Source: an uncultured Candidatus Saccharibacteria bacterium (GTDB taxonomy: Bacteria; Patescibacteriota; Minisyncoccia; Phycocordibacterales; Phycocordibacteraceae). From it: a DNA stretch of 38,439 nt. The notes below the pieces were generated by a model. The model saw only the letters and a list, made by a program, of their open reading frames with translations, searched no databases and was not told the DNA's origin. The stretch spans positions 1 to 38,439 of the forward strand of contig CAYITJ010000006.1 of assembly GCA_964366435.1 (NCBI GenBank). Direction: 5' to 3'. Below are positions 11,597-21,231 of the stretch, one piece after another (positions within the stretch are counted from its first letter, which is position 1; the number at the start of each line of letters is the position of its first letter). Both the position numbers and the translations under genes were made by a program.

Positions 11597-12721
11597 ATGC
11601 CTGGTCTGTCATCAAAACTATTTGGAGACCGACTCTTCGCCCTTATTGTAGCCATTCTTGTGGTGGGGGGCACAAGTGTGTTTTTCTCTGCGGCGCTCGG
11701 CCTGCTTGCGCGCGAAGGAGGGTCTATCGGACACATCGCTCTCACCCAGCTCGCGCTTGGCCTTGTTCCAGGTCTTATAGCGCTCGCGCTTTTGCGGTTC
11801 GCACCGCCCGCATGGATTGAGAAGGCGATTCTCCCGCTCTTTGTTCTCGCCATTCTTGCCACACTACTGGTGTTTGTCCCTGGCGTGGGTCACCACGTAA
11901 ACGGCGCAACACGCTGGATTGCTATTGGTCCGTTTACCGTGCAGCCGGCCGAGTTCCTAAAGATTGCGACCATTCTCATGCTCTCGCTGTACTTGGCAAA
12001 GATGCGCACCAAGCTCTCTGACATGCGCTACGGACTACTTGGATTCTGCACTATTGTGGGAGTGCCCGCGCTTCTGCTTCTTGCACAACCAAACACTTCC
12101 ACAACACTCGTCATTGGCTTCACTGCCGCAGCACTCTACTTCGTTGCGGGGGCACCACTGCGCGATTTCGCAATTCTTGCCTGCATTGCACTTATTGGAG
12201 CAGGTGCACTCGTGGCAACGCGCCCGTACCTGATGCACCGTGTCCAGACTTTCATAAACCCAGATCAGAACGCACTTTCTACGGGGTACCAGATTCAACA
12301 GTCTCTTATTGCGGTTGGCTCGGGCGGCATGCTCGGACGAGGCTTTGGGCAAAGTGTGCAGAAATTTAACTACCTACCCGAGCCAGTAGGGGACTCGGTC
12401 TTTGCCGTGTACGCGGAGGAGTTTGGGTTCCTCGGCACGGTTATCCTGGTTCTCCTGTTTACGGGATTTGCTGCCCGCGGCTTTGCGATAGCAGCAGGAG
12501 CAGCCACGAGCTTTGGATCGCTTGCTGCCACTGGCCTCACTCTACTCATTACCATTTCAGCATTTATGAACATTGGCGCCATGCTCGGCATCATGCCACT
12601 TACGGGTCTTCCGCTCCCATTTGTTTCCCATGGAGGAACAGCACTCCTGGCAGCGCTTGCGTCCGTAGGTATCATTTTGAATGTCGCTGCGCACCGCCCG
12701 AAGCGCAAAGCCGCACATTGA
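11597..12721 (+). CDS. ftsW: FtsW/RodA/SpoVE SEDS peptidoglycan glycosyltransferase
   Basis: NGATRW, QPAEFLK, GYQIQQS, YLPE..DSVFA..AEEFG, TGLPLPFVSHGG. Lies between mraY and murG. Confidence 0.9.
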   Translation: MPGLSSKLFGDRLFALIVAILVVGGTSVFFSAALGLLAREGGSIGHIALTQLALGLVPGLIALALLRFAPPAWIEKAILPLFVLAILATLLVFVPGVGHHVNGATRWIAIGPFTVQPAEFLKIATILMLSLYLAKMRTKLSDMRYGLLGFCTIVGVPALLLLAQPNTSTTLVIGFTAAALYFVAGAPLRDFAILACIALIGAGALVATRPYLMHRVQTFINPDQNALSTGYQIQQSLIAVGSGGMLGRGFGQSVQKFNYLPEPVGDSVFAVYAEEFGFLGTVILVLLFTGFAARGFAIAAGAATSFGSLAATGLTLLITISAFMNIGAMLGIMPLTGLPLPFVSHGGTALLAALASVGIILNVAAHRPKRKAAH

Positions 12722-12746
12722 TTCCGCACAGAAGTGGTGCTATCGT
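12718..12746 (+). promoter_or_regulatory. Putative tmRNA promoter
   Basis: TTGATT-17nt-TATCGT with TG extension, overlapping the ftsW stop codon. Confidence 0.55.
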
Positions 12747-12751
12747 CATCT

Positions 12752-13165
12752 TGGCTACGCGGTGTGACGAGTAATAAGCGGACTGGACCCGGGTGCGATT
12801 CCCGGCGCCTCCACCACTACCTCACCCCTTGATCTTTTAGTGAAGGGGGCGATCAGCATCGACAGACGTGTAAAAACGTCACCGAGCTTCGAGCTCAAGC
12901 TGCCTGCCAATTCTAAACGCCAACGATAACTTCGTGGTGACTGCTGAGGAAGACGCGGGCGACCGCGTTCTCCTCGCCGCCTAATAGGGTCCGCTAACCC
13001 GACCCAGGCGAAAAGTCCTTCGTCCCTTCACCAGGATTAAGGCTGGGCCCGGAGGGAGCCTGCAAACAGAATCCCTCCACCTCATTCTAGAATCGACGCA
13101 AGCTTTTCCGCGAGAGGGCGCGTGGGTCGGGGGGCCCCCGGTTGCATCGCAACCGGGGGCTTTTC
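12752..13165 (+). ncRNA. ssrA: Circularly permuted (two-piece) tmRNA
   Basis: Acceptor piece comes first (T-arm CCGGG-TGCGATT-CCCGG 12789-12805, CGCCTCCA-CCA 12806-12816). A 28-nt intervening segment follows. Then the coding piece begins GGGGGCG-ATCAGCATCGAC (12845), giving a G3:U70 pair. Tag ORF 12919-12987 reads ANDNFVVTAEEDAGDRVLLAA**. Confidence 0.95.
13134..13165 (+). terminator. Intrinsic terminator of the tmRNA gene
   Basis: GCCCCCGGTTGC-ATC-GCAACCGGGGGC-TTTT. Confidence 0.85.
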
Positions 13166-18490: not shown

Positions 18491-19158
18491 TCTTTTGCGT
18501 CGCGCACCCTCCACAGTACGCGGCACGCGTAGGAACGGTGCGGCGACCACTGCTGTGCAATCAGCTCAATCTCTGCAATAGGTGCGTCTTTAGGTAGTCC
18601 ATAGAGTGCTTCTACAGAACGACGAAGACCCAAGTCACCAGGCGAGAATACGTCCTCTTTCTGAAGAGCAAATATAAGAAACATCTCGGCCGTCCAGCGC
18701 CCAATACCCCAAATAGCTGAGAGCGCAGCCACAGCGTCGTCCTCGGGCATTGCGCCGAGTTTCTTCAAATCAAGCGCACCTTCGGTAAGGGCTTTTGAAA
18801 GCTGCTTGAGAGTCTTTATCTTTGCCGCAGACAGTCCTGCTTTGCGCATCGTCGTCTCACGCAAGCGAAGTATTGCTTCTGGCGTCACGGTACCCTTGCA
18901 AGCTTTCTCCAATCGCGCCCAAATAGTGTCAGCTGCCTTGGTGGAGAGCTGCTGACTCACAATAGAGCCCGCAAGGGCAGGGAAGAGTGCATCGTATCGC
19001 CTGCGGTGCTCCATACTCGCCAGAATGGTGTCGTGGTGGGGAAGTGCGGCCCGGTAGAGCTTCGGGTCAGCTTTCTTCAAATGCATGAGTGCTGGATGGG
19101 GGAGCGAGCCTCCCCTTTTGTTCACTTGCTTCTTAGTGGCAGTCTTTTTTACGGCCAT
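18487..19158 (-). CDS. alkA: DNA-3-methyladenine glycosylase II (AlkA/HhH-GPD family)
   Basis: SIVSQQLSTKAA, GIGRWTAEMFLIF, DLGLRR, WSPHRSYA. Likely start ATG 19158. Confidence 0.88.
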   Translation of the reverse strand: MAVKKTATKKQVNKRGGSLPHPALMHLKKADPKLYRAALPHHDTILASMEHRRRYDALFPALAGSIVSQQLSTKAADTIWARLEKACKGTVTPEAILRLRETTMRKAGLSAAKIKTLKQLSKALTEGALDLKKLGAMPEDDAVAALSAIWGIGRWTAEMFLIFALQKEDVFSPGDLGLRRSVEALYGLPKDAPIAEIELIAQQWSPHRSYACRVLWRVRDAKD

Positions 19159-19164
19159 GCCCAT

Positions 19165-19172
19165 AGTATACT
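19165..19172. promoter_or_regulatory. Palindromic -10 element shared by two divergent genes
   Basis: AGTATACT reads TATACT on both strands, 6 nt from the alkA ATG and 7 nt from ATG 19180. Confidence 0.6.
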
Positions 19173-19179
19173 TTTTTAC

Positions 19180-19377
19180 ATGATTAGATTCATCATTGTG
19201 CTTGCCATTGGGGTACTCGTACTTTCCTACCTTGGCATTTCTATTCGCTCCATCGTAGAGAGCCCGTACGGCCAGGACAATTTCTCCTTCCTCTGGGACC
19301 TCATTTCAAACGGCTGGAACATTGTCGTGGCGTGGGTTACGGGCTTCGCCGAGAATGTAATGAACACCGTCTCCTAA
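19180..19377 (+). CDS. Small membrane protein (65 aa)
   Basis: MIRFIIVLAIGVLVLSYLGISIRSIVES.. with a hydrophobic N-terminus. Confidence 0.7.
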   Translation: MIRFIIVLAIGVLVLSYLGISIRSIVESPYGQDNFSFLWDLISNGWNIVVAWVTGFAENVMNTVS

Positions 19378-19391
19378 CCGTCTACATTTCT

Positions 19392-19649
19392 ATGAACCCT
19401 GAGCAACCAAAACAAATTGAAATTGCCATCGGTCCTGATGCGCGCCCGGCCTTTACCAACGCCACCCAGGTAACCGTCTCCGACGACTCGGTAGTTATCC
19501 AGTTTGCATACATGCGCCCGAGCTCTCCTATGGGCCAACTGGTGAGCGAGGTGGTCCTTTCTCCAAAGCACGCAATCGACTTTAGTCGCGCGCTAGACGC
19601 TACCATCAAGCAACATTTCACCCGACACCTCGAAGGATTGGACAAATAG
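19392..19649 (+). CDS. DUF3467-like protein
   Basis: PAFTNATQV..DSVVIQFA..LVSEVVLSPKHAIDF pattern recalled for DUF3467. Confidence 0.7.
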   Translation: MNPEQPKQIEIAIGPDARPAFTNATQVTVSDDSVVIQFAYMRPSSPMGQLVSEVVLSPKHAIDFSRALDATIKQHFTRHLEGLDK

Positions 19650-19671
19650 TCCCGTACGGGTCTATGCTGAG

Positions 19672-20002
19672 CGTGTGCGGATCTTTGTCGCACGATTTGT
19701 ACCGGAGGCTACGATGCTTTCTCGCAAGCACCAGATTGACCTGGTTCGTTCGGTCACCCTGGGGACTACGGCCAATCCGGAGTGTGATTGGAAGGAAGAC
19801 GGCCACACGAAGCGGCCCCCTGACGACGGGTAGTTTAGACTCCAGCATCGGCAGCACATCCTCGTTCTGCCGCTACTAGACTCTGAGCAACTCGGTCTAC
19901 GGACCTTGAGCGAAAGCTCTCAGTCACACACACCGTCCTTGGCCTCGTAAGAAGGACTCGGCCACTACCGACTTTGGACTCCCCCGGGAGTCCAAATTTT
20001 TT
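19672..20002 (+). ncRNA. Unassigned ~330-nt structured RNA candidate
   Basis: Upstream TGGACA-18-TATGCT; at least nine hairpins including GAGC-GAAA-GCTC; 3' H-type pseudoknot; strong terminator; no credible ORF. Confidence 0.6.
19973..20002 (+). terminator. Intrinsic terminator
   Basis: TTTGGACTCC-CCCG-GGAGTCCAAA-TTTTTT. Confidence 0.85.
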
Positions 20003-20177
20003 GTATCGGGGGAGTGGCTCAGAATTCCTTTTCTGAAGAATCTTGCCAGGCACGTGTACAGGGGACAGACATCCTCGCCCACGTACACGCACCTCTACGG
20101 ATGCAAGGATAGTGCAAGGGAAGTACCAGACCCAAATCAGCTCAAGGCGCCACAGCGCCTATATACTATGTAGAATT

Positions 20178-20205
20178 AGTGCGTAAAAGATATATTGTGC
20201 GCACA
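20178..20205. other. dif-like Xer recombination site (candidate)
   Basis: AGTGCGTAAAA-GATATA-TTGTGCGCACA, an 11-6-11 layout with both arms resembling the E. coli XerC arm GGTGCGCATAA. Confidence 0.5.
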
Positions 20206-20524
20206 TTAAGTGAAGAACTCCCCTGGAGCAAATTTAATTTGAACCGACCCTAGTCGCTGATCACCACCCTCCTCTTCCCTCTCTATGGGTGGCCAAAATA
20301 TTTCTGGATCTCTATGCGCACTCAAACTTCCCTCCAGCAATCTTAAAAGTCGTAAAATGGACCACTTCCCCGATTCTCCAAAAATGCGCTAGGGAAGTCC
20401 TAAATCGCATAATTGACCACTTCCCCATTGACTGGTTTTTTTGTCAGATTGAGTGTAAAGATGCATTGCATACGCACGATGCAATCTGGTATCCATAGAG
20501 CTTCCCGGAAATAAGGATACGACG

Positions 20525-20749
20525 ATGGCCGACGACTCGCCTTTCGACCCTGAAAAACTGTTCGACATCAGTGACCTGCCCGAGGATATGCAACGCATCA
20601 TCAGGGAGCAGATGGCGATGACGGACGAAGAAGTCCAGGAATATCTGGTTGAGCACGGCCTGGAATATCTGGTGACCCCCGAACGCGTTGACAAAGCCCT
20701 GCGAGACGCCATGGCTGTTGTCGAAGCGCGCCGGCGTAAGCTGAACTGA
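20525..20749 (+). CDS. Small acidic hypothetical protein (74 aa)
   Basis: SD AAGGA, GC3-rich codons, terminator hairpin at 20778-20812. Confidence 0.75.
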   Translation: MADDSPFDPEKLFDISDLPEDMQRIIREQMAMTDEEVQEYLVEHGLEYLVTPERVDKALRDAMAVVEARRRKLN

Positions 20750-20956
20750 ACCAAGTTTCGGAATCTCCCGGAAAGGTGCCCACCCGAGTCAAACGACGGA
20801 GGTGGGCATTTTCATATGCATTCTCCTACCCTGCTGATGTGTGATACATTCCACTTGTAGATATGGACATCGTAAGTCCATATATGGATGGAACCAGGTA
20901 CTTTGTAGTTTCTCTAGCGAAGTCCAGAATGAGATAGTTAGCCACTTCCCCATTAC

Positions 20957-20984
20957 TTGACTTCATGGGTTTTCGGCGTATAAA
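20957..20984 (+). promoter_or_regulatory. Putative sigma70 promoter
   Basis: TTGACT-16nt-TATAAA upstream of the ORF at 21031. Confidence 0.55.
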
Positions 20985-21030
20985 TCTCGTAGGCGCACAT
21001 CCGTTCGCCAGCAGCACAGGAATGCCCGAA

Positions 21031-21231
21031 ATGTCGAACTCCAACAACCGTGGCAGCAGTGTCACCAACTGGGTGATTGCCTTCCTTCTCGCCGCCCTGA
21101 TCATCATCGTCCTGGCGGGTGTCCTGGGCGGCGGCAGGACCGAGGCCCCGCCCAACGCGCCGGCTGCCGCCGAGTCGCGCGACGGCGCTGGCCCTCCGGC
21201 CACCTCCCGCAACGGCAATGAGCCGGGCTAG
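21031..21231 (+). CDS. Small single-TM protein with a Pro/Ala-rich tail (66 aa)
   Basis: SD AGGA 9 nt upstream; TM segment WVIAFLLAALIIIVLAGVL; very GC3-rich codons. Confidence 0.7.
   Translation: MSNSNNRGSSVTNWVIAFLLAALIIIVLAGVLGGGRTEAPPNAPAAAESRDGAGPPATSRNGNEPG

Follow-up and report, generated by a model that had tools for sequence, protein, structure and literature searches.

A putative small-protein mRNA and its conserved 3' stem-loop module in the DUF3467-dif interval of a Candidatus Saccharibacteria genome

What lies between the DUF3467 gene and the nearby dif-like Xer site of an uncultured Candidatus Saccharibacteria bacterium (genome of 745 kb in 32 contigs)? The window analysed was the whole of contig C6 (GenBank CAYITJ010000006.1, assembly GCA_964366435.1; 38,439 nt), and the element in question occupies positions 19639-20002, with the DUF3467 gene on one side and the dif-like site on the other. 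An earlier note, made from the letters of the window, had described it as a large, multi-junction non-coding RNA (ncRNA) that is almost entirely helical and contains no credible open reading frame (ORF). The reading favoured here, to which we give an even chance of being right, is that of a clade-restricted small-protein mRNA composed of a 5' hairpin, a 39-codon ORF, a conserved 3' module and a terminator. The parts of the element are as follows.

19639-19668, plus strand: promoter-like site, with the -35 hexamer TGGACA at 19639-19644, an 18-nt spacer and the -10 hexamer TATGCT at 19663-19668.
19675-19693, plus strand: 5' hairpin GUGCGG-AUCUUUG-UCGCAC at the predicted 5' end of the transcript, folding in 4/4 genomes that carry the element.
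19704-19708, plus strand: GGAGG box, 5 nt before the ATG.
19714-19833, plus strand: small ORF of 39 codons plus TAG, peptide MLSRKHQIDLVRSVTLGTTANPECDWKEDGHTKRPPDDG, with start, stop and frame kept in homologues.
19828-19921, plus strand: 3' stem-loop module, a long irregular hairpin and two 4-bp hairpins, conserved.
19828-19893, plus strand: the long irregular hairpin of this module, with the stop codon within its base.
19894-19905, plus strand: hairpin GGUC-UACG-GACC, part of the 3' module.
19908-19919, plus strand: hairpin GAGC-GAAA-GCUC, part of the 3' module.
19973-20002, plus strand: intrinsic terminator with a 10-bp stem, a 4-nt loop and a T6 run (stem-loop and T run at 19973-19996).

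Homologues, which the earlier note had proposed to collect, were found in three genomes. BLASTN of 19639-20002 against 60 relatives returned only one 25-nt chance match, and BLASTN of 19650-20520 against 221 other genomes of the same genus returned the element in two (G237, 87% identical; G192, 76% identical). Over the entire element, 316/350 positions in G237 and 223/344 in G192 (65%) were identical to the window. A third, divergent copy (G231) was located by synteny, using the DUF3467 gene and a conserved site downstream of it; the insert between them is longer and barely alignable. The window and these three are the four genomes referred to throughout. Nothing further was recovered by BLASTN, nhmmer or covariance model: a three-sequence nhmmer profile run over all fetched loci gave no new member and scored G231 with E = 3.4 only, and a covariance model of the 3' module (R1), applied to 40 loci (123,604 bases), matched G231 at its syntenic site (12 bits, E = 1.4) and no copy beyond this weak match and those already known. 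Across the window's own genome R1 matched only itself. When genome contigs across GTDB were scanned with a pattern, the only records recovered were those of G237 and G192; two pattern matches in metagenome contigs (L046 and L047) were rejected as AT-rich chance matches and not homologues. Judged by these searches, the element probably does not extend beyond a small clade within one Saccharibacteria genus, and its presence in 2/221 genomes by BLASTN is a poor fit to a widespread new RNA family.

The statement that the element holds no credible ORF was contradicted by these relatives. When ORFs were listed in the three alignable genomes, a single frame was common to all, from ATG 19714 to TAG 19831-19833. 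The ORF of G237 has the identical ATG and TAG, 39 codons and one different residue, that of G192 has the same ATG and TAG and 42 codons, and that of G231 has 38 codons and terminates at the homologous TAG-TTT despite barely alignable DNA; start, stop and frame are thus kept in all four (39, 39, 42 and 38 codons). The distance from ATG to TAG in G192 differs from that in the window by 9 nt, and MAFFT placed indels of 6 nt and 3 nt within the ORF; the indels outside it measure 1, 2, 2, 1 and 4 nt. A HMMER search of 1.84 billion representative proteins returned one further 39-aa protein, P0003 (metagenomic, 72% identical, E = 5e-9), and a profile search of 5.8 billion protein clusters gave four distinct family members in total. 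The three peptides that were looked up are already gene calls in their source records. Invariant residues are M1, H6, Q7, L16, T19, E23, D25, W26, K27, D29, G30, D37 and D38; the N-terminus of the peptide is basic, its C-terminus acidic, and the motif E-[CS]-D-W-K-x-D-G is conserved. Nucleotide differences at the three codon positions numbered 20/10/19 over 39 codons, the second position varying least. The aligned peptides scored 74 by BLOSUM62 in frame 0, and 51 and 24 when read in the two remaining frames; column shuffles scored 41.6 +/- 14.8, with 1.5% reaching 74 under a null that ignores the clustering of conserved columns, and only 11.9% of the shuffles remained free of stops.

Other coding possibilities were rejected. 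A 71-aa ORF at 19664-19879, which overlaps the small ORF and has no Pfam family, is broken by a 1-nt indel in G237; ORFs on the minus strand are not conserved; and stop-codon read-through, for which the frame stays open for 46 codons past the TAG in the window, is excluded by 2-nt and 1-nt indels in G192 that break the frame. A type I toxin is unlikely since the peptide is hydrophilic. A search of the ESM Atlas with the peptide gave no lead.

Folding was compared with dinucleotide shuffles, as the earlier note had proposed. The whole 334 nt folded at -125.2 kcal/mol (z = -2.89; 0/100 shuffles as good), and the minus strand of the same 334 nt folded about equally (z = -2.79). The z-scores of the parts were as follows.

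19669-19713, plus strand: 5' end, fold z-score +0.13.
19704-19833, plus strand: middle, fold z-score +0.99.
19828-19921, plus strand: 3' module, fold z-score -3.83.
19922-19972, plus strand: "pseudoknot" part, fold z-score -0.52.

The signal of the whole molecule is therefore limited to 19828-19921, the only part that folds better than shuffles by itself, and of the nearly complete helicity described earlier about 94 nt plus the terminator stand out beyond chance. Several of the helices drawn by hand do occur in the minimum-energy fold (GUGCGG/UCGCAC, CCAG..UGACC/GGUCA..CUGG, GGCC/GGCC, CGGCAG/CUGCCG, GGUC/GACC and GAGC-GAAA-GCUC), but pairs of the 5' part are often broken in G192. A large multi-junction ncRNA is at odds with 5' two thirds that fold no better than shuffles, with a conserved ORF in the middle and with the narrow distribution of the element. 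The 3' pseudoknot is not kept in the closest relatives either; its place in the window is the following.

19935-19963, plus strand: hairpin GUCCUU/AAGGAC and two GGCC words, present in the sequence, with the z-score of -0.52 given above for this part.

At this position G237 (90% identical) and G192 have another hairpin, ACCUA..UCC/GGA..UAGGU, and lack the GGCC pair.

The 3' module itself is conserved by structure. In the window its fold has an ensemble frequency of 0.48, and its z-score, -3.83 in the window, is lower still in G192 (-5.29) and in G231 (-6.19), where the layout of a long hairpin followed by short hairpins is kept in unrelated sequence. In the alignment of three sequences 94.4% of the cells pair, compared with 26-46% when the partners are slid. 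As to covariation, another test that had been proposed, 3/30 pairs of this module change on both sides compared with 1.0 +/- 0.8 in shuffles (15/500 reach 3; three alignable sequences), one of them being GGUC/GACC, which becomes GGCC/GGCC in the otherwise near-identical G237. Over the whole region RNAalifold gave a covariation term of only -0.19 kcal/mol for the same three sequences, and G192 disrupts many of the pairs predicted in the 5' half. The GNRA loop noted earlier is present in the window as GAAA and reads ACAU in G192. The earlier argument from G-U pairs for the plus strand was borne out, as the invariant G.U pairs of the module are on the plus strand and R1 scores 110.9 bits there and 28.3 bits on the minus strand. 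On this comparison of sequences, the 3' third forms a genuine RNA structure of the plus strand that has been conserved.

The ends of the element are conserved as well. TGGACA-18-TATGCT is present at 19639-19668 as had been claimed, although the count of such patterns is at chance level (one match in 19000-20800 versus 1.5 +/- 1.1 in shuffles). The form [TC][CG]GACA-18-TATGCT is found in 4/4 genomes with the element, as is the layout of -35 box, 18 nt, -10 TATGCT, 6 nt and a hairpin beginning with GUGCG; the -35-like hexamer falls inside the final DUF3467 codons in the window and outside coding sequence in G231. The -10 TATGCT lies exactly 12 nt upstream of GTG 19675, which is the modal spacing of the leaderless genes of this genome and is consistent with a transcript beginning at GUG 19675. 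The 5' hairpin, which in G231 has 8 bp and a different 3' strand, is unremarkable in energy when compared with shuffles (19669-19713, see above). The strong terminator described at 19973-20002 was confirmed: a G+C-rich stem-loop and a U run are present, the 10-bp stem is invariant in G237 and G192, the latter changing the loop only, and G231, as read from its sequence, has its own strong terminator-like hairpin and U-run at the equivalent place. With -35 and -10 boxes, 5' hairpin and terminator in all four genomes, the element looks like a discrete transcription unit of ~330 nt, and the earlier note's prediction of a stand-alone unit agrees with this.

In the favoured reading, a sigma-70-type promoter would start an RNA near 19675, the first 19 nt of which would fold as a 5'-terminal hairpin, followed by the 39-codon ORF at 19714-19833. 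The UAG would lie in the base of the long hairpin, which together with the two short hairpins and the terminator would form a stable 3' end. The hairpins at the two ends may shield the short message from 5'-end-dependent and from 3'-exonucleolytic decay. A ribosome completing the ORF would have to open the base of the long hairpin, and we propose that translation and 3' structure are coupled in this way.

How ribosomes would reach the ATG was considered in the light of translation starts in this genome. A GG[AG]GG word lies 5-7 nt upstream of the ATG in 4/4 genomes. A positional peak of GGAG/GAGG was not found upstream of 402 well-defined starts, the 3' region of the 16S gene (contig C27) lacks what we take to be the usual anti-Shine-Dalgarno pentamer, and a -10 box (TANNNT) stands 12-15 nt before the ATG in 159/400 genes, a leaderless-like arrangement. 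Translation starts in this organism thus appear to be free of Shine-Dalgarno pairing and often leaderless, and for these reasons the conserved GGAGG is not taken as evidence of a ribosome-binding site. With Shine-Dalgarno pairing apparently not in use, ribosomes may load at the 5'-terminal GUG, as they would on the leaderless mRNAs of this organism, and come to the internal AUG from there. In the window, the frame of GUG 19675 continues into the small ORF (52 aa). In G237 it terminates within the ORF, in G192 it terminates 14 nt short of the ATG, and in G231 it stops at a TGA that overlaps the ATG of the small ORF (AUGA). Loading at the 5' end and subsequent re-initiation would thus be possible.

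Several observations weigh against a small-protein mRNA. The missing Shine-Dalgarno peak and the 16S 3' region are among them, and the ATG of the small ORF has no -10 box at leaderless spacing. Codon differences were 5 synonymous versus 26 non-synonymous, which indicates weak constraint at the protein level, and pS/pN was nearly equal in frame (0.59/0.37) and in frame +1 (0.56/0.35). Nucleotide identity of the ORF to G192 is ~58%, below that of blocks of the 3' module. The AlphaFold model of the peptide is poor (pLDDT 58.5, pTM 0.17), and the family is tiny (four proteins), so that the statistics rest on 3-4 related sequences.

Some of these points would fit the main rival reading, a clade-specific non-coding or dual-function small RNA (sRNA), which we consider possible, if on the unlikely side. 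The 3' module and its single-stranded blocks would then be the functional part, for example in protein binding or target pairing, and the frame would be fortuitous or vestigial. The most conserved blocks do lie in the 3' module rather than in the ORF, significant 3' structure is kept in three lineages, the G.U pairs and covariance-model scores point to a plus-strand RNA, and the signal of the dN/dS type fails to separate frame 0 from frame +1; without a Shine-Dalgarno mechanism the pair of GGAGG and ATG loses its meaning. Such an sRNA would leave the ORF to be accounted for: four genomes and a fifth peptide preserve its frame, start and stop, its length differs by a multiple of three (9 nt), a rule that the indels outside it do not follow, and its best peptide similarity is in frame 0. 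Shuffles fold as well as the 5' 165 nt, many of whose predicted pairs are disrupted in G192, and a range of 2/221 by BLASTN leaves little room for a general RNA function.

The absence of a match to any Rfam family also fits an undescribed sRNA. At gathering score the only Rfam 15 match in the whole window was a tmRNA at 12714-13081, outside the element, and in 19400-20300 at E<=10 the only match was a 21-nt minus-strand chance match (E = 2); the Rfam check proposed earlier was therefore negative. RNase P RNA (RF00010) was rejected, as the genome's copy is at C9:18238-18611 (119.3 bits) and the element has no match, and 6S RNA (RF00013), as no match was obtained in the element or the genome. 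A divergent signal recognition particle (SRP) RNA was considered for a GGAAGGAAG word in the window and for the lack of any SRP RNA match in the genome; it was rejected because no model matches the element, no Ffh/FtsY domain was found, and presence in 2/221 genomes by BLASTN is unfit for an essential RNA such as SRP RNA. The size of ~330 nt is in the range common to RNase P, SRP, 6S and tmRNA, none of which matched the element at E<=10. The tmRNA at 12714-13081 is of the permuted, two-piece type (alpha_tmRNA model 115.8 bits, tmRNA_permuted 98 bits). Searches for SRP components gave no PF02978, PF00448, RF00169 or RF01854 match in the window's own genome; when order-level relatives were covered, RF00169 matched in 0/61 genomes, and PF00448 gave only four weak matches in 25 genomes, all within the first 43 model positions; in the controls, the searches matched in 12-14 of 14 known genomes. 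The abstracts consulted do not mention a missing SRP in Saccharibacteria, and those on DUF3467 and on dif/XerC, SRP, leaderless starts and small RNA in Saccharibacteria do not describe the element.

Doubtful, in our estimate, is a new clade-specific riboregulator or dual-function RNA in which the conserved 95-nt module starting at the stop codon would be the active part, for example as a protein-binding or decoy structure, with its accessibility set by translation of the tiny ORF; the acquisition of such an RNA as a cassette next to the dif-like site is conceivable.

The setting of the element bears on this and on the next reading. Its two neighbours are the following.

19392-19649, plus strand: DUF3467 gene (Pfam PF11950, E = 2.2e-9).
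20180-20207, no strand assigned: dif-like Xer site AGTGCGTAAAA-GATATA-TTGTGCGCACA, a 28-bp imperfect palindrome and marker of the replication terminus.

Relatives of the DUF3467 gene (68-77% identity) are present in 9/36 sampled genomes of the genus. A palindrome, TAGTCCC-GTAC-GGGTCTA at 19646-19665, overlaps the DUF3467 stop and occupies the spacer of the promoter; G237 has it in perfect form and G192 with changes in the centre only, and it could be an RNA hairpin closing the DUF3467 message or a protein-binding site.

Xer sites consist of two 11-bp arms around a 6-bp centre. The sequence at 20180-20207 has this 28-bp layout with inverted arms, its match lies roughly opposite dnaA in 5/5 closed or near-closed relatives, and the genome has a single tyrosine recombinase gene (PF00589, C4:32165-32686); it probably serves as dif in a Xer system with one recombinase, and the earlier placing of the element beside the putative terminus is supported. 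A match to the site was found in 113/221 other genomes of the genus, with flanks that are not conserved. The interval between DUF3467 and dif is variable: 5/10 relatives' loci hold a gene for a small secreted protein, and in G002 and G026 the dif-like site lies ~60-210 nt past the DUF3467 stop. The small-ORF unit can thus be described as a clade-specific occupant of a variable terminus region. In the five loci (L007, L009, L012, L013 and L014) the small gene has a signal-peptide-like start (MKK..., with a conserved ATYAYVN..GEVMT), follows DUF3467 in place of the small-ORF unit and is flanked by TTCATGAAG-type palindromes.

This variability, together with the occurrence of the element in few species only, would suit a functionless relic, that is, variable terminus DNA such as the remains of a gene or module inserted beside the dif-like site, whose hairpins would be terminators and palindromes not yet decayed. 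We regard this as improbable. At 19681-19693, overlapping the 5' hairpin, the dif left arm recurs in inverted form and could be a trace of such an insertion, but this copy has 2 mismatches in 13 positions, and with 4 such matches in the window versus 3.3 expected it is weak and not significant alone. G192 at 65% identity keeps the promoter boxes, the 5' hairpin, the ends of the ORF, the long hairpin (with compensatory changes) and the terminator, and G231 retains the layout at almost no sequence identity; neutral decay is not expected to give a layout that is kept despite such divergence.

Inverted left arms with <=2 mismatches were also seen 13-100 nt upstream of dif in 7/32 loci (L010, L027, L033, L034, L036, L038 and L044), in some of which the arm forms part of a dif-like site whose centre is longer; the 2-mismatch copy of the window and of G237 is ~480 nt upstream of dif, at the 5' end of the small-ORF unit. 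At 20144-20170, 10-20 nt upstream of the dif-like site, a GC-rich hairpin is followed by a TATA-rich word (TATATACTATG in the window), as at the equivalent place in L019, L021, L031 and L041; it may act as a promoter directed across dif or belong to an extended site. IMEX elements and the dif modules of Acinetobacter (PMC10132070 and PMC12907356) are gene modules located next to Xer sites. They resemble the element in being small, variably present cassettes beside a dif-like site with a partial inverted arm on the far side; they differ from it in that its far-side copy is a single arm with 2 mismatches, not significant alone, and that no second full site is present; any mobility is conjectural.

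The weakest reading, a leader-peptide transcription attenuator in which translation of the ORF would set formation of the terminator and control a downstream gene, is very improbable: it would account for the short ORF followed by hairpins and a terminator, for the stop codon embedded in a hairpin and for the resemblance of the 5' strand of the long hairpin (UUUAGACUCC, 19834-19843) to the 5' arm of the terminator (UUUGGACUCC, 19973-19982), but this resemblance is absent in G231, the peptide has no run of regulatory codons, no regulated gene stands directly downstream on the same strand, where a non-coding tract of ~520 nt containing the dif-like site separates the terminator from the next plus-strand ORF (20525), and that ORF sits behind its own repeat/promoter-like element. 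This belongs to a 41-nt repeat present in three copies (20334-20374, 20389-20429 and 20914-20954), with the inverted words GGGAAGT ... ACTTCCC; the repeats precede two terminator-flanked ORFs (20525-20749, 74 aa, and 20965-21231, 88 aa) and look like shared operator or promoter elements.

The putative small-protein mRNA was also compared with known systems. mRNAs with a small ORF and dual-function sRNAs such as SgrS/SgrT, RNAIII/delta-haemolysin and SR1/SR1P are likewise transcripts of a few hundred nt with their own promoter and terminator, an ORF of 30-50 codons and structured RNA outside it; the element has no sequence or Rfam relation to them, its host does not appear to use Shine-Dalgarno pairing, and four peptides of its family are recorded. 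Bacterial mRNAs are stabilised by 3' hairpins of the REP type and by 5' hairpins of the ompA type, which the element resembles in its stable hairpin at the 5' end and its series of hairpins before the terminator, these being conserved by structure over sequence. Unlike REP-type hairpins, which are dispersed repeats, the long hairpin starts right at the stop codon and occurs once in the genome. Leader-peptide attenuators of the trp and his type share with it the short ORF, the hairpins and the intrinsic terminator, and differ in having a regulated gene downstream and an antiterminator alternative, of which no conserved form was found here.

The locus is a worked case in which hand-drawn helices suggested a large ncRNA, and fold statistics and three relatives show an ORF and a 3' stem-loop module. 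Its context may outweigh the element itself: a well-defined dif-like site in the genus with a variable neighbourhood, translation starts that appear free of Shine-Dalgarno pairing and often leaderless, and a genome in which no SRP component was detected. If the favoured reading is true, the element would be another lineage-restricted small gene with structured untranslated ends and no new RNA class, and it would be useful to the annotation of Saccharibacteria genomes.

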